A DNA stretch of 64,000 nt from Dehalococcoidia bacterium (lineage in GTDB: Bacteria > Chloroflexota > Dehalococcoidia > Lucifugimonadales > JAGWBF01). The stretch lies in assembly GCA_034421095.1 (NCBI GenBank), contig DAOUKR010000007.1, positions 64,712 to 128,711 of the forward strand. Reading direction: 5' to 3'. The notes below the pieces were generated by a model that was not told where the DNA came from, ran no database searches, and was given only the letters and a program-made list of their open reading frames with translations. How positions within the stretch are numbered: position 1 is the stretch's first letter; every line of letters starts with the position of its first letter. Positions 21,210 to 29,718 of the stretch are shown here, piece by piece. Both the position numbers and the translations under genes were made by a program.

Positions 21210-22796
21210 TTGGCGGTGAGCAATCAGGATACTGAAGCGGCCCAAGCCTATCACGAGTCCACAAAGCTTTCCTATATCAACCTGCGCAACAAGCCCCCGA
21301 TTTACAAGTCCTACGACGAACTCCAGGTTTTTCCCCTTCCTACCGACTTTTCCATGTCCAAGACCTCAACTCTGGATGCAGTTGCTGGCGTAGGCCCGGG
21401 AGACGTGGCAGCCTTTGACATTGGTCTGCTTGCTCGGTGCTTGTTTTACTCCGTCGGACTTGTCAGGAAGGGGGTCTTCCCAAAGGCAGGGGAGGTGCGT
21501 TTCCGAGCTGCGGCTTCCGCGGGAGGGCTGTATCCGATAGAGACCTACCTGGTATGTAAGGATATTCCAGGGTTGGAGGCAGGAGTTTACCATTTTTCCC
21601 CGAGGGACTTTGCCCTTAGACAGTTGCGTAAAGGCGACTACAGGAGCGAGCTTTACGGGGCTACCGGCGAGGATAGCTCTGTTTCCGGATCCCCCGTTAC
21701 CCTTATTTTTACGTCCATTTTCTGGAGGAGTGCCTGGAAGTACAGAGCTCGCTCTTACAGGTACTGTTTCTGGGACAACGGTACTATCCTCGCCAATTTG
21801 CTGGCGACGGTTTCGACAGAGGGGTTGCAGGCGCGGGTGATAGCTGGATTCGTGGACGATCAGGTGAACTCGCTGCTAGGGGTTGACGGAGAGATGGAAG
21901 CGAGTCTATGTATGGTCACGTTGGGTGGGGAACATGATTCCCGGTCAGGCTCAAGCCAGTTGACAGTAGCACCGCTCTCATCCGAATCGGAACTCCCTCC
22001 CGATGACATGATTGATTACCCTGAGATACGCCACATGCACACCGCTTCGATGTTGGGTACGGCGGAGAAGGTTGTGTCCTGGCGGGGTGTCATGCCTTCA
22101 GAATCGCCTCAGATCAGGACTCCATCTTATTCCCTGGAGAGCGCTGGGGGTAGTAGCAGGGAGGTGAGTAAACTGGGAGACGTGATTCTTGGTCGTGGCT
22201 CCACCCGGCGTTTCGCTCCTGTCTCTATATCTCGGATGCAGTTCGATTCCATAGTTGACTACTCTACCAGAGGAGTCCCGGCGGACTTTCTGGGACCCGG
22301 TGGAACAAGCTTGTTGGACATCTATATGATTGTCAACTCTGTGGATGGGCTTTCCGCCGGAAGCTACTTCTTCTCCCAGGAGCGAAGGAGCATGGAACAG
22401 CTTCAGGACAGGGACCTGCGCATGGAGGCCGGACACCTGTGTTTCGAGCAGGCTTTGGGGGCCGACGCCAGTGCGGTGGTCTTCTTTATGGCTGACCTGG
22501 AGCGAATATTTCGTCGCTTCGGAAACAGGGGTTATCGTGCTGCTCAACTGGAGGCGGGTACCATTGGAGGCAAGATGTACCTCTGTGCCCATTCCCTGGG
22601 GCTAGGGGCCAGCGGCCTTACATTCTACGACGATGACGTCACCGATTTCTTCTCTCCCCACTCCCAAGGCAAAAGTCCCATGTTTGTTGTTGCACTGGGA
22701 GTAACGGACAAGATAAACCGGGTGCGACCATTCAGGTCTCGGGTGGGCGTTCTGCTTGACGCCTTGTCTCGTGGGGCGGAGGGAGGAAGCCGGTAA
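21210..22796 (+). CDS. SagB/ThcOx-type nitroreductase-fold protein with two FMN-binding domains
   Basis: Domain 1: AAASAGGLYPIETY, YRARSYRYCFWDNG; domain 2: RGSTRRF, YRAAQLEAG, FYDDDV. Confidence 0.85.
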   Translation: MAVSNQDTEAAQAYHESTKLSYINLRNKPPIYKSYDELQVFPLPTDFSMSKTSTLDAVAGVGPGDVAAFDIGLLARCLFYSVGLVRKGVFPKAGEVRFRAAASAGGLYPIETYLVCKDIPGLEAGVYHFSPRDFALRQLRKGDYRSELYGATGEDSSVSGSPVTLIFTSIFWRSAWKYRARSYRYCFWDNGTILANLLATVSTEGLQARVIAGFVDDQVNSLLGVDGEMEASLCMVTLGGEHDSRSGSSQLTVAPLSSESELPPDDMIDYPEIRHMHTASMLGTAEKVVSWRGVMPSESPQIRTPSYSLESAGGSSREVSKLGDVILGRGSTRRFAPVSISRMQFDSIVDYSTRGVPADFLGPGGTSLLDIYMIVNSVDGLSAGSYFFSQERRSMEQLQDRDLRMEAGHLCFEQALGADASAVVFFMADLERIFRRFGNRGYRAAQLEAGTIGGKMYLCAHSLGLGASGLTFYDDDVTDFFSPHSQGKSPMFVVALGVTDKINRVRPFRSRVGVLLDALSRGAEGGSR

Positions 22797-22856: not shown

Positions 22857-23663
22857 CTAGCTCTCGACTTTTTCAACTATGTAATGCAATGTCCCTCTGG
22901 GTACGGTAATGTGGACCTCTTCGCCCATCATCTTGTCCAGAAGGGCCTTCCCTACAGGGGAGATGCTGGAGATTCTGCCCGTGGCGGGGTCCGCTTCCCT
23001 TGAGTCTACCAGGGTGTAACAGACCTCCTTGCCGCTGCTCACTTCCCGAAGGGTCACCTTTCTACCAATCTTGACTTGCTGTCCATTCGCAGTGTTTTGA
23101 TCGTCTGCCACGACTGCGTTGATCAGGATTCCCTCCAGCTCCTTCAGGCTGGACTCGATAAGGCCCTGACGCTCCTTGGCGGCGTCGAGTGGTGCGTTTT
23201 CCCTGAAATCTTTGTCTGCCATAGCCCGTTGGATGTCGGCTATGACGTTAATCCGTTCTTCTTTGAGCATCTCCAGGCGGGACTGGAGGTTGGCGTATCC
23301 TTCGGCGGTGAGCTCCGCACGTTCCATTGCCGACTTGAAATATACGCGCCTGGAACCTTTCTTTGCCTTGGACACCTTCAGGTGAGGGGCAAGGCTAACG
23401 CTGGTCAGCTTCCTCTCCCGGAGGTAGGTCAGGAAAGATTTCACAGGCTTCAGCTTTTTGGCCGAGTCTGCACCCCAAATGCTGGCTGACTCTCCATACT
23501 CAGCTATCTCAGAGGGGGTTAGCTGGGATATGGCTCTATCTCTACCGCACCATTGGATGAAGCGGTTAAGCTCTTGTTGTCCTTCACGCTGCTCCTCTCC
23601 TTTAAGCCTGGGCAAGTACTGATCGTAGGCTTCCTTTAGAGAATGGCCTTGCTCTACAGACAA
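22857..23663 (-). CDS. greA: Transcription elongation factor GreA with an N-terminal extension of about 100 aa
   Basis: LTAEGYANLQSRL, DFRENAPLDAAKE (two acidic tip residues), EADPATGRISSISPVGKALL. Confidence 0.9.
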   Translation of the reverse strand: MSVEQGHSLKEAYDQYLPRLKGEEQREGQQELNRFIQWCGRDRAISQLTPSEIAEYGESASIWGADSAKKLKPVKSFLTYLRERKLTSVSLAPHLKVSKAKKGSRRVYFKSAMERAELTAEGYANLQSRLEMLKEERINVIADIQRAMADKDFRENAPLDAAKERQGLIESSLKELEGILINAVVADDQNTANGQQVKIGRKVTLREVSSGKEVCYTLVDSREADPATGRISSISPVGKALLDKMMGEEVHITVPRGTLHYIVEKVES

Positions 23664-23665
23664 CT

Positions 23666-26011
23666 TCAGCTCTCCTTTCCAACGACTAATCCAAGTTTGG
23701 CCAGGACGCTCTGGCTATCTTGGGACGATTCAAGGCCCCATTCCAATCCCAGTTCGTACTTTTCCTGAAGCTGGCTTATGGTTTCAGGGCCCGGAAGATT
23801 ACCTTCGCCCAGATGTTGGACCAACTCTGGTAGCGAATTGTAGGCCTGGTCTACATTCCAGTAAAAGGACAATAGCCAGGCCAGTTCCCGTTCGTTGATC
23901 GGGCTGGGAATTATTCTGAGGTCCAGGATGTTGTTATTAACCTTGGTATATCTCAGGATACCGGCTTTGTCCTGGGCATCTCTACCGTAATGTCTTCTGC
24001 GGTTCAGTTCTTCGACTCTCCGCTTATATTCCGCCTCACCATATATCTCCCGGGGTAGCCACTCCGACCGGAGGTCCACTACTTCATCCCCGTTCTGGTT
24101 CACTATGGCTACAGCTATGTCCGAACCCAGTACGCTGTCATATTCAAACTTCACAGCATTGCGCAGCAAGGCTTCCTGTAGCATCAGCGTCAGGTCTCTC
24201 TGAATCTTCCTGTATTGTGACCCACTGGCATCGTCATTGGTATCGGCGCCGACCCCACCTGTGTTGAAGGCGTAATACTCCTGGGGTATCCCTCCGTCGG
24301 CCATCTCATGCAGTATGTTGTACATGAGATTGGCGTTCTCATCTTCCAGACCGATAATGAACGGGTCGGAGAAGTATTCCACATACGGTCTGCCTATAGC
24401 ACCTATAGCGGCCCCCATCTGAACTGCCTCACCATACATCAGGACTCTAATGTATTGCTCAAGGCCGAGACGCCTCAAGGGTGGTATCACGGTGTTTTGT
24501 CGCATCACTGCCTGCCAGAATACTCGGTCGGTGTTCTCCATAGGCACATGGACGGAATCTTCCATTTGGCCGTTGGTGATTGCCTCCATCAGGTGGGCAG
24601 CCCCCTTCCGGTTCAGGAGGCGAGGCCGAGAAAGGATCATACGCATGTTGCGAACTGGATTTCGGAGATAATTGGGTGTGCTGTCGTCAACGTTGACAGG
24701 GACGTTCTCCAGGGTTTCCTGGGGGTTTGGAGTCTCTTCTGTGCCCCTGAGAACATCGTAAGTTATAGGGTCGTCTTTCTGAGTGAGACCGAATGGTACG
24801 GCGTACAGGTTGTTCTCAGTTCCGTCTATGCCGTGGGAAATCCTTACGTGCCTGCCTCCGCGCGTTGTCTCCTTGACCTCCTGCAGAGGCTGGAGAAGGA
24901 CGATGTCATCGTTCATTGGGTAGACACCCTCTTGTGGGTCCGTCACGAGGTCGAGGTGTTTGGCAAGGACGCTATTTGCCAACTCGATCATTATGGTGAG
25001 GGTGCTCTTCCCATGCAATGAAGGGCCGATTGTGACAAGTGCCGTGTTTGTCATGGTGTTATCCAGAGTCTTGATCCGCGCCATGCTAAGAGCGGCTTGG
25101 ACTGCAAGCCCATTGGCCTGTTTAACCTGAAACATCGCAATGGATAATGGGCCCATTTTGTGCTCACCAACATAGTCAAATCCCAGGTGGAGAGATAGAC
25201 CTTTGGTGGGGGCTTTGAAGACCAATTGGGTGAGCTTAGCCTCTCTAACGCGGTCCTTAAGGTCTTCCGGCATGTCGAGATGCTCAAGCCACCTTGGGAT
25301 TGAGACTTCCAGAATATTGGGGGTTTTGTGGCGTTCTAAGTCCGGCATGTCGAACGTCAGTTGTCGCCACATATATGGGGCCTGAAGGTAGTCGGTGCCG
25401 AAGAACAGTTGTCGAGCATGGAATGAACGTCCTGGCGCATCACAAATTTGCCTGTCGGATTGGATTATTGGAGGCTGGTCATCCTGCTCATCTGATGCCG
25501 AGTCGCCGTTAAATTGGCGATTCATAAACCTGTTGATATAGACGAATACTTCGGCAAAAATGGCTTGATTGGCCTCACTGAAAGCCAGAGCGTCCCGGTT
25601 TTTGGCGAAGCCATCAATGAAATACTGGGTAAGGTCGGGCCGGCGTGCTACTCCCAGCTGGCTGAAAAAGGCCAGACCGCCGTTGTCCAGGCGAAACGCC
25701 ACACCCGGCCCGGCTCGGCCTGCAGCCTTTCCCTCGTCGTTGGCCTTTTGTGCTTCTTCGTCAATTTCTCTGGCCTCTGCGAGGATTTCCTCCTGCTTTA
25801 CTTGAGGCATGTCTTGGATAATGGTCATGTGGCTGGTGAGCCATTCGTCTGGGGGATTGAAAAATTTGCTGTTCGGCGCTTGACCCTGACTTGCTAGAGC
25901 TACCAGTTCGTCTAGTTCCCTCTCGAAAGCAGGATTGATAGGTGGCCCGGCGAGAGGAGGGACTTGCCCTGAGCCATGTCCGAGGGGTGGCTCCTGAACG
26001 CTCTCTGGCAT
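23666..26011 (-). CDS. Divergent ATP-dependent PEP carboxykinase-fold protein
   Basis: GFDYVGEHK, P-loop GPSLHGKST, NDD, RNMR, IPPL, YFSDPF, FNTGGVG in PEPCK order; 781 aa; catalytic competence uncertain. Confidence 0.7.
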   Translation of the reverse strand: MPESVQEPPLGHGSGQVPPLAGPPINPAFERELDELVALASQGQAPNSKFFNPPDEWLTSHMTIIQDMPQVKQEEILAEAREIDEEAQKANDEGKAAGRAGPGVAFRLDNGGLAFFSQLGVARRPDLTQYFIDGFAKNRDALAFSEANQAIFAEVFVYINRFMNRQFNGDSASDEQDDQPPIIQSDRQICDAPGRSFHARQLFFGTDYLQAPYMWRQLTFDMPDLERHKTPNILEVSIPRWLEHLDMPEDLKDRVREAKLTQLVFKAPTKGLSLHLGFDYVGEHKMGPLSIAMFQVKQANGLAVQAALSMARIKTLDNTMTNTALVTIGPSLHGKSTLTIMIELANSVLAKHLDLVTDPQEGVYPMNDDIVLLQPLQEVKETTRGGRHVRISHGIDGTENNLYAVPFGLTQKDDPITYDVLRGTEETPNPQETLENVPVNVDDSTPNYLRNPVRNMRMILSRPRLLNRKGAAHLMEAITNGQMEDSVHVPMENTDRVFWQAVMRQNTVIPPLRRLGLEQYIRVLMYGEAVQMGAAIGAIGRPYVEYFSDPFIIGLEDENANLMYNILHEMADGGIPQEYYAFNTGGVGADTNDDASGSQYRKIQRDLTLMLQEALLRNAVKFEYDSVLGSDIAVAIVNQNGDEVVDLRSEWLPREIYGEAEYKRRVEELNRRRHYGRDAQDKAGILRYTKVNNNILDLRIIPSPINERELAWLLSFYWNVDQAYNSLPELVQHLGEGNLPGPETISQLQEKYELGLEWGLESSQDSQSVLAKLGLVVGKES

Positions 26012-26369
26012 CTGAGATTACCTCCTACTGGGATTGTCAGGGCGTCTCATCGTTGGTGTTATTGACAGTATTCTAAGGTATTCTTATCAAGAATACCAGC
26101 ATCCTGCAATCATGGCAAAGAGGTATGAAGGTCATAATTCCGTGTCTTTATTGACCAATATTTACGTCTAGGGCATCAGACTTCTCTTTGGCCCATAACT
26201 TTGAGCCGTATCTGCATTGAGGCTTCTTACGATTTGTGAAAGATGACAAAGGAAAGGCAAGAGTGGGTTTTCGTAACCTGTGCAGTTGCTTTGTGATACC
26301 CAGAAAATGGCTGCCCGGTAATGCCCAGAGCCTGTAAATTTGAACTTGTATCAGGTACAATATAAGTGT

Positions 26370-27074
26370 ATGGCTATCCTCGCCATAGTATCCAATAACG
26401 AACGGAATGCTCAAAAGTACATCCAGGCCGTAGCTGGACATGTCCAGACCCGACTGGTCACTCCGCAAGACATGTTCGCCCCACCGGAAGCGTTGCTTTC
26501 AGATGCCGGTGGCCTTCTGCTTACCGGAGGACCGGACGTAGACCCCGTCAACTATGACGAACCACGGGATAGTGAGGCGGGTCTGGAGCTTGCGGAGGCG
26601 CTTGATACCCTGGAGTTCGGGCTGCTCCGATATGCTTTGGAACACGATATGCCAGTGCTGGCGATTTGTCGTGGTATGCAGCTTTTGAACGTGGCATTTG
26701 GTGGCAAGCTGCTCCAGGATATACCCGGCCATAAGGCGGAGCTTAAAGAGGGGCATTGGGAATCTGTGCATCACTCCATCTATATTTCACCGGGGAGCAA
26801 GCTGGCAGCGATCCTGGGGATGGGCGGCTTTTTCCGGGTCAACAGTCGTCATCATCAGGGCTTGCGGGAGGCACAGAAATCTCCCAGGCTGCTGGCATCG
26901 GCCTACTCAATGGATGACGCCATTATTGAGGGATTGGAAAGCCCGGAGCACACCTGGGTAGTGGGTGTTCAGTGTCACCCGGAACGCCGTGATGAAGTGC
27001 CAAAGGCTTTCGCCAACCTGTTCTTGGCCTTCACAGAGCGGGTGGAAGGGTACAAACAGAATACGAATTCCTAG
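26370..27074 (+). CDS. Class I glutamine amidotransferase-like, peptidase C26 (PuuD-like gamma-glutamyl hydrolase)
   Basis: LLLTGGPDVDP, AICRGMQLLNV, VNSRHHQG, GVQCHPE. Confidence 0.92.
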   Translation: MAILAIVSNNERNAQKYIQAVAGHVQTRLVTPQDMFAPPEALLSDAGGLLLTGGPDVDPVNYDEPRDSEAGLELAEALDTLEFGLLRYALEHDMPVLAICRGMQLLNVAFGGKLLQDIPGHKAELKEGHWESVHHSIYISPGSKLAAILGMGGFFRVNSRHHQGLREAQKSPRLLASAYSMDDAIIEGLESPEHTWVVGVQCHPERRDEVPKAFANLFLAFTERVEGYKQNTNS

Positions 27075-27120
27075 CTCCAAGACATTGGGACATTAGAACA
27101 AATATCATAAGGAGTCACAG

Positions 27121-29718
27121 ATGGTAACGCTAACTCCTTCGAGTAACATCCAACCGATTAGAATAGAAGAAGAGATGCGTAGCTCCTATCTAAGCTACGC
27201 CATGAGTGTCATTGTCGCAAGGGCACTGCCGGACGTGCGCGACGGGCTGAAGCCGGTCCAGAGGCGCATCCTTTATGCCATGCACGAGCTGGGCCTACGA
27301 CCTGCCAGTGCTTACAAGAAAAGCGCCCGCATAGTTGGTGAAGTCCTGGGCAAGTATCACCCCCATGGTGACGCCCCTGTGTATGATTCCCTGGTACGAA
27401 TGGCTCAGGGGTTTTCCATGCGGTATACACTGGTGGACGGGCAGGGCAACTTTGGAAGCATTGATAACGACCCTCCAGCGGCCATGCGCTACACCGAGGC
27501 ACGCCTGGCGTCTATCTCCGAGGAACTCCTGGCAGACATAGAACTAAACACCGTGGACCTTACCGAGAACTTTGACGGCTCTCTTGAAGAGCCTACGGTC
27601 CTGCCTGGGCTGCTCCCCAATATGCTGGTCAACGGCGCTTCAGGAATCGCCGTTGGGATGGCTACCAACATACCACCCCACAACTTGTCTGAGGTCTGCG
27701 ACGCGGTGTGTTATCTCGTAGACCACCCGGACGCCGTGGTCGAGGAACTGATGGCCCGGGTACACGGACCCGATTTCCCCACGGGAGCCATCATACAGGG
27801 GCGCTCCGGCATTGTAGATGCTTACACAACCGGTCATGGCCGGGTGGTCATGCAGGCTAGAACTGAGATTCAAGAGCTTCGCGGAGGCAGACAGCAGATA
27901 ATTGTCAGTGAGATACCCTTCCAGGTGAACAAAGCTTCCCTGGTGGAGAAGATTGCCCATTTGGTACGGGACAAGAAGATTGAGGGTATCTCCGATGTGA
28001 GGGACGAGTCGGACAGGCAAGGGCTACGGGTGGTAGTGGAGTTGAAACGGGATGCTCAGGCTGAGATTATACTGAACAATCTCTACAGGCACACGGCCCT
28101 GCGGTCCTCCTTCAACGTGATTATGCTAGCTTTGGTAGATGGACAACCCCAGGTATTGGGCCTGAAGCGTGCCCTCCAACTGTATATTGAGCACCGGCGC
28201 GTGGTCATTACCCGCCGTTCCGAGCATCTACTGAAGCAGGCGAGAGACCGTGCCCACATTGTGGCGGGTCTCCTGCTGGCCCTGGACCGTATGGATGAGG
28301 TAATAGCCATTATCAGGGCCTCCCAGGACGCCACCACCGCGCGTGGCAATCTGATGACCGCCCTGAGTCTGACTGAGGTCCAGGCTCAAGCCATCCTTGA
28401 TATGCAGCTAAGGCGTCTCGCTGCCCTGGAGAGGGAAAGGCTGGAAAAGGAGTACCAGGACCTGCTCAACACTATAAGCGACCTGGAATCTCTACTAGCT
28501 GACCCGGCAAGAGTGCTTGCGGTAATTAAGGAAGACGCGAGAAGACTGAAAAAGCGGTACGGCGACCCAAGGCGTACGGAGATACAAGACGAGGAAGCCG
28601 CTCACCACACCATCGAGGAGTTAACACCACACCAGGATGTTGTGATTACTCTCAGCCAGAGAGGCTACATCAAACGTATACCTACCTCTACTTACAAGAT
28701 CCAGCATCGGGGAGGCAAGGGTGTCCGAGGCATGACGACCCGGGAGGATGACGCCTTGCAAGACCTGCTGGTAGCCGATACTCACGACACAGTGCTGTTT
28801 TTCACCAACAAGGGCCGCGCCTATCCGCTGAGATGTTTCAACATCGGCGAGGATAGCTCGCGCACCACTAGGGGCACATCCATCATTAACATGCTGCCTA
28901 TTGCCGATGGGGAGCGGGTCAACGCGTTGCTAGCAGTGCCCGACCTCAAGGAGCGGGGCAACGTGTTCATTCTAGCCACCCGCCGAGGCCGGGTAAAAAT
29001 GTTGCGTCCGGGGGACCTAGCGGGGATACGTTCCAATGGCCTGATAGTGATGAACTTGAAGGAGGGTGATGAAGTGGTCTCCGCTCGGATAGTTAAGGAG
29101 GGCGGCGATGCTATTCTGGTGACGGAAAAAGGGCAGTCCATCCGCTTTGCTGTATCTGATGTGCGGCAGTCAGGACGCCAAACCCAGGGAGTACATGGCA
29201 TCAAACTGGCCCCAGGAGACCGAGTAGTCGCGATGGATGTGGCCCTTAACAACGGGTTCCTGCTCACCGTCAGCTACCACGGATATGGCAAATGCACCGT
29301 ATTGAACAAATATCCGCGTCACCATAGAGGAGGCTCAGGCGTACGTACTCTCCGCGTCAGTGAGACCACTGGTCCGGTGGTCGGCGCCAGGGTGGTGAAT
29401 GAGTCTGAGAACCAGGAGATTATGTTGATCTCGGCCAAAGCCCAGGTGATACGGGTAAGCCTGCAAGACTTCCGAATGGTGGGGCGCAACACCCAGGGAG
29501 TGCGCATCTGGCGCGACAAGCAAGCCGACGATCATGTCGCCTCCTTGACCTGCCTTATGCCCCAAGCTAGGGAGGGTGATCCCCTACCTTGCTTGCCAGA
29601 TACGGACATAGATTTGAGAGACGGTGGAAGCAGCGGCCACAAAAACAAAGAGGCAAAAAAGGTAAATGACGGGAGCCTCAATGGGAATGTTAGTCAGGGA
29701 ACCTTTGAGAATTTCTAA
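27121..29718 (+). CDS. gyrA: DNA gyrase subunit A
   Basis: [28 protein letters not shown] catalytic Tyr, GyrA-box QHRGGKG, beta-pinwheel repeats. Confidence 0.97.

Follow-up and report, generated by a model that had tools for sequence, protein, structure and literature searches.

A long-form PEPCK-like protein of SAR202-type Dehalococcoidia with a putatively rebuilt metal site

Phosphoenolpyruvate carboxykinases (PEPCKs) link phosphoenolpyruvate (PEP) and oxaloacetate and are divided into ATP-, GTP- and pyrophosphate (PPi)-dependent types. The ATP-type enzymes (PckA, EC 4.1.1.49, Pfam family PF01293) are represented by the structures 1AQ2/1AYL (Escherichia coli), 1J3B (Thermus thermophilus) and 1YVY (Anaerobiospirillum succiniciproducens), and the GTP-type enzymes (EC 4.1.1.32) by rat cPEPCK (2QEW) and the Pck protein of Mycobacterium tuberculosis. 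In both types, metal site 1 (M1) is formed by an Asp, a Lys and a His residue (PMC4370629), and this Lys/His/Asp site for Mn2+ is regarded as a constant of PEPCK catalysis. Here, we analysed a PEPCK-like gene in a DNA stretch of 64,000 nucleotides from a Dehalococcoidia bacterium (assembly GCA_034421095.1, contig DAOUKR010000007.1, positions 64,712 to 128,711), which is referred to as the window. Judged by alignment, its product and the related proteins, here called the long form, are devoid of two of the three M1 ligands, the equivalents of Escherichia coli Lys213 and His232, while the Asp269 equivalent is kept.

23666..26011, minus strand: long-form PEPCK-like gene, an open reading frame (ORF) of 781 amino acids with an ATP-PEPCK fold, helical extensions at both termini and four internal insertions

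We lean slightly towards the view that the long form is an active, remodelled and lineage-specific member of the ATP-type PEPCK superfamily, and that its gene is a core, stand-alone housekeeping gene for PEP-oxaloacetate conversion in SAR202-type Dehalococcoidia. The invariance of its motifs, the purifying selection acting on the gene and the conservation of its candidate lid region all favour a functional enzyme over a degenerate one.

The closest relatives are short PEPCKs of about 510-540 amino acids from Clostridia, Acidobacteria and Korarchaeota-type lineages (NF006821; Heliobacterium, Desulfoscipio, Thermoanaerobaculia, Elusimicrobia), which match at 29-32% identity with E values down to 1e-26. 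They have in common with the long form the motifs DYVGE.K, DDIVL, GTENNFY, PFIIG and LNTG and the GL.[LIV]. strand, and an Elusimicrobia clade among them also has Met at the Lys213 position. In contrast to the long form, the short proteins retain His232, the P-loop GLSGTGKTT and K288, and they are devoid of the extensions and insertions. With 781 residues, the window protein exceeds E. coli PckA (540 residues) by 241, which agrees with the excess of about 250 residues claimed in an original prediction made from the DNA letters, and it is about 270 residues longer than its nearest short relatives.

When compared to the characterized types, the long form is nearer to the ATP- than to the GTP-PEPCKs in both structure and sequence. 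It shares with the ATP-PEPCKs the fold over the whole target and the order of the motifs, the equivalents of R65, Y207, K212, S250, K254, T255 (as Ser), D268, D269, R333 and T455, and a conserved candidate lid region. It differs by Met and Gln in place of K213 and H232, by Val in place of K288, by the P-loop GPSLHGKST instead of GLSGTGKTT, and by the addition of the invariant H284 and H333 and of about 240 residues. In its P-loop the long form is more similar to the GTP-type sequence FPSACGKTN than to that of the ATP type, and it follows the pattern x-P-S-x-[C/H]-G-K-[T/S] together with the GTP-PEPCKs. The GTP enzymes, however, keep the Lys/His/Asp M1 site and bind guanine by a Phe triad, whereas the long form has the NTG...T signature of the ATP type.

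Predicted fold and residue mapping

Family models place the window protein at the margin of the known PEPCKs. PF01293 (PEPCK_ATP) is matched with 28.2 bits at a cutoff of 26.5, which is a marginal pass, and the NCBIfam model NF006821 matches residues 174-674 with 120.5 bits (E 8e-35), not reaching its cutoff of 369. The Pfam scan returned PEPCK_ATP only, and an assignment to DUF4914 is not supported. Neither the window protein nor the family profile matched any chain in a sequence search of the Protein Data Bank (PDB), so that the solved PEPCKs are connected to the long form only via fold comparison and alignment through intermediate sequences.

The fold was assessed with an AlphaFold2 model, for which 38 members of the family supplied the input sequences and which reached a mean predicted local distance difference test score (pLDDT) of 83 and a predicted template modelling score of 0.86. 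In a Foldseek search against the PDB, the best 35 matches were all ATP-PEPCKs, with E values from 4e-21 to 2e-18 and target-normalised template modelling (TM) scores of 0.65-0.73; they include the enzymes of Thermus (1j3b), Anaerobiospirillum (1yvy), Actinobacillus (1ylh), E. coli (1aq2/1ayl) and Trypanosoma (1ii2). The matches to 1j3b, 1yvy and 1aq2, among others, had E values of about 1e-21, a probability of 1.00 and TM scores of 0.68-0.73. GTP-PEPCKs ranked after the ATP-type enzymes, with TM scores of 0.5-0.56. As the top matches are exclusively PEPCKs, the model indicates that the complete two-domain PEPCK fold is present in the window protein, even at a sequence identity to the solved enzymes of just 13-16%.

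The roughly 240 additional residues are distributed over an N-terminal and a C-terminal helical extension and four insertions. According to the alignment and the model, one insertion follows the P-loop, another follows the Asp-Asp motif, and the remaining two lie in loops nearer to the C-terminus. The extensions and the candidate lid are located as follows:

25697..26011, minus strand: N-terminal extension, residues ~1-105, with no counterpart in short PEPCKs; three predicted helices (27-42, 55-60, 70-92)
23669..23986, minus strand: C-terminal extension, residues ~676-781, with no counterpart in short PEPCKs; helices in 707-773
24356..24436, minus strand: candidate omega-loop lid, residues 526-552, aligned with the lid region of E. 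coli PckA

In the family alignment, the columns from Y526 to F551 of the candidate lid are invariant or nearly so, yet residues 529-552 have a pLDDT below 50. The omega-loop lid of PEPCKs orders only upon substrate binding (PMC12529880, PMC8100219), and an invariant stretch of low model confidence is consistent with the appearance expected for such a mobile loop. The C-terminal extension contains a DKAGILRYT loop (residues 681-689), in which D681-Y688 are invariant and residues 683-686 are modelled with low confidence; this loop might add to the active site or to an oligomer interface.

Individual residues were mapped by a MAFFT alignment of the window protein, three further family members, the seven nearest short PEPCKs and PckA of E. 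coli K-12 (NC_000913), and the coordinates of the motifs were confirmed by translating the corresponding window positions. The M1 ligands of E. coli are numbered after Tari et al. 1997, in agreement with the PDB titles 'Lys213Ser' and 'Asp269Asn'. The mapping gave the following features:

25154..25174, minus strand: YVGEHKM, with Y280 = Y207, E283 = E210, H284 at M211, K285 = K212 and M286 at K213 (Mn ligand lost), by alignment
25097..25099, minus strand: Q305 in place of the Mn ligand H232; GLAVQAALS compared with GLGLHAGSK in short PEPCKs and IASMHCSAN in E. coli
24905..24910, minus strand: D368-D369 = D268/D269, of which D269 is the third M1 ligand and is kept; invariant in long forms, short forms and E. 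coli
25001..25027, minus strand: P-loop GPSLHGKST, with S331 = S250, H333 at T252, K335 = K254 and S336 = T255 (Mg ligand), by alignment
25640..25645, minus strand: R123-R124 in GVARRPD, with R123 = R65 of the R-loop in E. coli (oxaloacetate/PEP/CO2 binding); aligned to GRSPKD and SRSA
24641..24652, minus strand: RNMR, with R457 = R333 (substrate/phosphate Arg) and N455 = N331, by alignment
24188..24265, minus strand: nucleotide-base region NTGG...YRKIQRDLT, with N583-G586 = NTGW, K602 = R449 and T608 = T455; N583, T584, G585, G586 and T608 invariant

The PEPCK motifs thus stand in the places and the order given by the original prediction (YVGEHKM, Q305, GPSLHGKST, DD and RNMR), and its claims that Lys213 is replaced by Met and His232 by Gln are borne out by the MAFFT mapping to M286 and Q305. 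In the same alignment, E. coli K288 is paired with V405 of the window protein. The contacts to adenine and ribose in E. coli are reported to be R449, I452, T455 and K288 (Tari et al. 1996-97).

An alternative is that the long form is an ordinary ATP-PEPCK that does possess the Lys and His ligands and was only misaligned. The identity of 13-16% to the solved enzymes leaves room for such an error, and a pairwise hhalign alignment against E. coli alone shifted the His strand by five residues relative to MAFFT, pairing H232 with A311. In neither alignment, however, are the ligand positions occupied by a His or a Lys; there is not a single His in the strand G301-I313, and a Met follows the GE.K motif in 201/201 family sequences. 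Moreover, the window segment GLAVQAALSMARIKT closely matches GLGLHAGSKSLRIKT of the nearest relative, P0168, which fixes the register of the His strand. We consider a misalignment to be the least probable of all the explanations weighed here.

Conservation and relationships of the long form

About 1000 database proteins of 755-785 amino acids match the window protein at 65-93% identity, and the gene is carried by at least 297 species-representative genomes. The 80 loci analysed all belong to metagenome-assembled genomes (MAGs) of Dehalococcoidia/Chloroflexota, several of them labelled SAR202, in line with a restriction of the family to SAR202-type Dehalococcoidia. Complete SAR202 MAG chromosomes with the gene include OZ244792.1, OZ240206.1 and OZ244817.1. 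When library sequences are grouped at a threshold of 50% identity, the full-length family collapses into a single representative, and the next full-length match is a short PEPCK of 539 amino acids with 32% identity. A canonical pck or a paralogue was found neither by tblastn of the 64-kb window with the long-form protein or E. coli PckA nor alongside the long-form gene in the 86 loci that were fetched.

The substitutions at the metal site are common to the whole family. Motifs were counted with loose patterns in 201 family sequences, and the one or two exceptions mentioned below failed to match the respective pattern at all. GEHKMG and PMNDDI are present in 201/201 sequences, while GPSLHGKST, NP[VT]RNMR and GV.RRPD are each present in 200/201; in the latter, both Arg residues are invariant in an alignment of 38 sequences. 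The pattern of the His strand was matched in 199 sequences, and in every one of these (199/199) the residue at the His232 position is Gln. Being fixed across the 201 sequences, the substitutions reflect neither chance nor sequencing error. Both replacements are thus conserved clade-wide. The statement of the original prediction that the P-loop, the DD pair and the Arg333-like RNMR are retained also holds, as these residues are aligned and (near-)invariant.

Beyond these motifs, the residues aligned to catalytic positions of E. coli are invariant or nearly so, including R123, Y280, E283, K285, S331, G334, K335, S336/T337, D368 and D369, and likewise E399, E435-N436, N455, R457, N583-G585 and T608. 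Pairwise ratios of non-synonymous to synonymous substitution rates (dN/dS) between the window gene and three relatives are 0.09-0.16, which demonstrates purifying selection. A study of sponge symbionts reported that a MAG of the Chloroflexi order UBA3495 expresses transcripts of an anaplerotic type, with the enzyme left unspecified (PMC8941161).

In a maximum-likelihood tree, the long form is placed outside the short PEPCK subfamily, with a stem length of about 5.7 substitutions per site and a tight crown, a topology in which long-branch effects are possible. The nearest short PEPCK was compared with 120 of its relatives, of which 19 otherwise canonical proteins form a clade that carries the motif [A/V/C/T]-K-M and thus a Met at the Lys213 position. 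These proteins (P0168, P0286-P0305) are about 525-560 amino acids long, derive mostly from Elusimicrobia MAGs and retain His232 as well as the P-loop GLSGTGKTT. In the tree, the Elusimicrobia clade falls within the short subfamily, beside the Clostridia/heliobacteria and Acidobacteria types, which suggests that the replacement of Lys213 by Met arose at least twice and in this clade independently of the long form. An ancestral change common to both groups is not supported, because the tree separates them, with the same reservation regarding long-branch artefacts. The combination of H284 next to the catalytic Lys in the long form and of CKM in P0168 had suggested a ligand-swap rule, by which a His or Cys would occupy position 211 whenever position 213 is Met; this rule fails, since the Elusimicrobia clade also contains AKM, VKM and TKM. 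The replacement of His232 by Gln is specific to the long form, and so are the invariant H284 and H333.

The PDB entry 2py7 is, by its title, the E. coli K213S variant crystallised with ATP-Mg2+-Mn2+, and Lys213 therefore does not appear to be indispensable for metal binding.

Proposed activity and competing explanations

If the long form is a remodelled ATP-type enzyme, as we tend to believe, it would couple a nucleotide-dependent phosphoryl transfer to a decarboxylation or carboxylation, with oxaloacetate/PEP or a closely similar 2-oxo/enol dicarboxylate as substrate. Catalysis would use the conserved Arg of the R-loop, the Tyr, the Lys, the P-loop, the Asp-Asp pair, the second Arg and the mobile lid. 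The M1 site would be rebuilt, with Met286 and Gln305 standing in place of Lys and His while Asp369 stays, and the replacement ligands may be Gln305 and/or H284, beside the catalytic Lys, and/or H333 in the P-loop. Such a site would probably have a metal preference unlike that of the classical Mn2+ site. While the fold, the residue mapping, the invariance, the purifying selection and the distribution are observed, we infer that a PEPCK-type activity is retained and which residues replace the lost ligands.

The candidate ligand H333 has a parallel in the GTP-type enzymes. In M. tuberculosis Pck, the P-loop spans F269-N277 and includes the hyper-reactive C273 as well as T276 (PMC4370629). H333 stands fifth in the P-loop, at the place that this hyper-reactive Cys holds in the GTP-PEPCK sequence FPSACGKTN. 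In structures by Holyoak and co-workers, the reactive Cys of GTP-PEPCKs is said to be able to reach the M1 metal, which we treat as a lead only.

Several observations weigh against a PEPCK-type activity. Two of the three M1 ligands are apparently gone in every member, and K288, presumably a nucleotide contact in E. coli, is aligned with a Val (V405). The NF006821 score is far below its cutoff (120 versus 369) and the Pfam cutoff is barely passed. The long stem followed by a tight crown may be read as a pattern typical of functional change. In addition, our survey of the literature on the long-form family, on SAR202 PEPCK and on new PEPCK classes returned no biochemical or structural work on any member.

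Most of these observations are also the basis of a competing explanation, in which the long form is a neofunctionalised PEPCK-fold enzyme with another substrate, another phosphoryl donor or other chemistry, and in which the six insertions and extensions together with the rebuilt metal site provide a new pocket or oligomer. The very long stem below a tight and highly conserved crown, together with the changes at metal and nucleotide positions, makes the kinase with new chemistry that the original prediction had considered a live rival. The P-loop GPSLHGKST is invariant, as are the replacements K213->M, H232->Q and K288->V, the extra residues (about 240) include the invariant DKAGILRYT loop, and the score far under the NCBIfam PEPCK cutoff points in the same direction. 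A further point in favour is that SAR202 genomes are known to contain expanded families of catabolic enzymes. On the other hand, the equivalents of R65, Y207, K212 and R333, which in E. coli bind oxaloacetate, PEP and CO2, are all kept and invariant, and a single-copy gene with no conserved catabolic neighbour suits an enzyme of central metabolism better than one of a specialised pathway. We regard a neofunctionalised enzyme as possible, though rather unlikely.

A more far-reaching proposal, which we offer only tentatively and consider doubtful, is that the long form adds a fourth functional class to the ATP, GTP and PPi types of PEPCK-fold enzymes. Its hallmarks would be a His/Gln/Asp metal site, a different metal need and possibly a change of phosphoryl donor or of the 2-oxo acid used as substrate. 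It would provide the sole link between PEP and oxaloacetate in SAR202, which ranks among the most abundant bacteria of the dark ocean, and part of the lineages would express it together with a GreA targeted to DNA and encoded downstream.

A large family that is maintained under strong purifying selection without two of the ligands, but with all else kept, is a natural experiment on the rebuilding of the site, or else a sign of new chemistry. SAR202-type Dehalococcoidia are uncultured, very abundant heterotrophs of the deep ocean, and their central carbon metabolism is inferred from annotation alone. The proteins are named 'phosphoenolpyruvate carboxykinase (ATP)' or 'hypothetical' in databases on the basis of the marginal Pfam match, and reconstructions of gluconeogenesis and anaplerosis in SAR202 therefore depend on a putative assignment.

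The greA junction and the gene neighbourhood

In the window, the long-form gene is followed on the same strand by greA:

23661..23685, minus strand: gene junction, with GGAAAGGAG, the TGA stop codon at 23666-23668, 2 nt, and the TTG start codon of greA at 23663
22857..23663, minus strand: long GreA of 268 amino acids, consisting of an extra N-terminal domain of about 112 amino acids and a complete GreA, according to Pfam and NCBIfam

The distance of 2 bp between stop and start had been correctly read in the original prediction. The Shine-Dalgarno-like stretch GGAAAGGAG is located within the 3' end of the PEPCK-like ORF, and the junction has the sequence GGAAAGGAGAGC-TGA-AG-TTG. A scan for terminators between the two genes found none. 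Due to the 2-nt gap and the ribosome-binding site inside the upstream ORF, both genes are probably co-transcribed in the window genome, and as a convergent gene ends at 22796 downstream of greA, the transcription unit would consist of these two genes.

The GreA part of the downstream product is complete. PF03449 (GreA_GreB_N) matches residues 118-185 with an E value of 5.6e-17, PF01272 (GreA_GreB) matches residues 195-267 with an E value of 8e-23, and the NCBIfam GreA models score 134 bits. A coiled coil with the acidic tip DKDFRENAPLD, which is invariant in eight orthologues, and a C-terminal globular domain complete the protein. The additional 112-residue N-terminal domain is outside the GreA/GreB family definition. 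Residues 1-112 are conserved in the eight aligned orthologues, with an invariant ELNRF.QWCGR.R motif, and have a weak Pfam match to Phage_int_SAM_4 (E 0.09).

The original prediction had considered the long form as a possible nucleotide-binding pseudo-enzyme that senses a metabolite and, together with GreA, transmits this signal to transcription. The two lost metal ligands, the translational coupling in the window genome and a GreA with an extra conserved N-terminal domain are compatible with such a link. The neighbourhood of the long-form gene was compared in 81 loci, i.e. 80 species loci and the window. A downstream greA on the same strand is present in 11/81 loci, while the other 70/81 have no greA within 10 kb. 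The greA adjacency, whose lack of conservation the original prediction had named as a refutation, is thus largely not conserved. The gap measures 2-3 nt in the clade of the window and 12-13 nt in a second clade, whereas three more lineages have gaps of 53-136 nt or more. The 11 loci occupy about five places on a gene tree that has no resolved backbone, and they are more clustered than in label shuffles; this distribution is compatible with one old arrangement that was lost many times. A relative with 85% identity has the same gene order as the window, whereas at the loci of P0076, a widespread variant of 759 amino acids, and of P0030 (68-71% identity) unrelated genes are found downstream and greA is absent.

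Within the protein, the P-loop and the remaining catalytic and substrate-binding residues as well as the putatively mobile lid are invariant, unlike in known pseudo-kinases, and the dN/dS values given above likewise argue against a pseudo-enzyme. In many bacteria, greA is a housekeeping gene with varied, unrelated neighbours. When all ORFs within 10 kb on either side were clustered in the 80 species loci, no neighbour was common to more than 17 of them, and with no neighbour conserved across the family the proposed metabolite-to-transcription link is unsupported. We consider a pseudo-enzyme or sensor acting with GreA to be improbable, and the PEPCK-greA pairing is best described as local synteny in a minority of lineages rather than as a family-wide functional module.

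In the closest relative, whose PEPCK-like gene is 93% identical, greA (L008:5651-6453) is recovered by tblastn in two pieces covering residues 1-174 and 174-268, and the ORF ends after 175 amino acids; the split is due either to a frameshift or to a misassembly of that MAG. Among the neighbours of the long-form gene, a divergent GATase/peptidase-C26-like gene and gyrA (window positions 26340-29718, plus strand) are retained most often, namely in 17/80 loci, and their retention is plain synteny rather than a sign of a functional link.

Upstream of the PEPCK-like gene, a scan for promoter consensus sequences returned one match, which by itself does not indicate function:

26090..26118, minus strand: promoter-like site TTGCCA-17-TATTCT, with 9/12 consensus matches and a TG extension

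This site overlaps a palindrome at 26077-26097.

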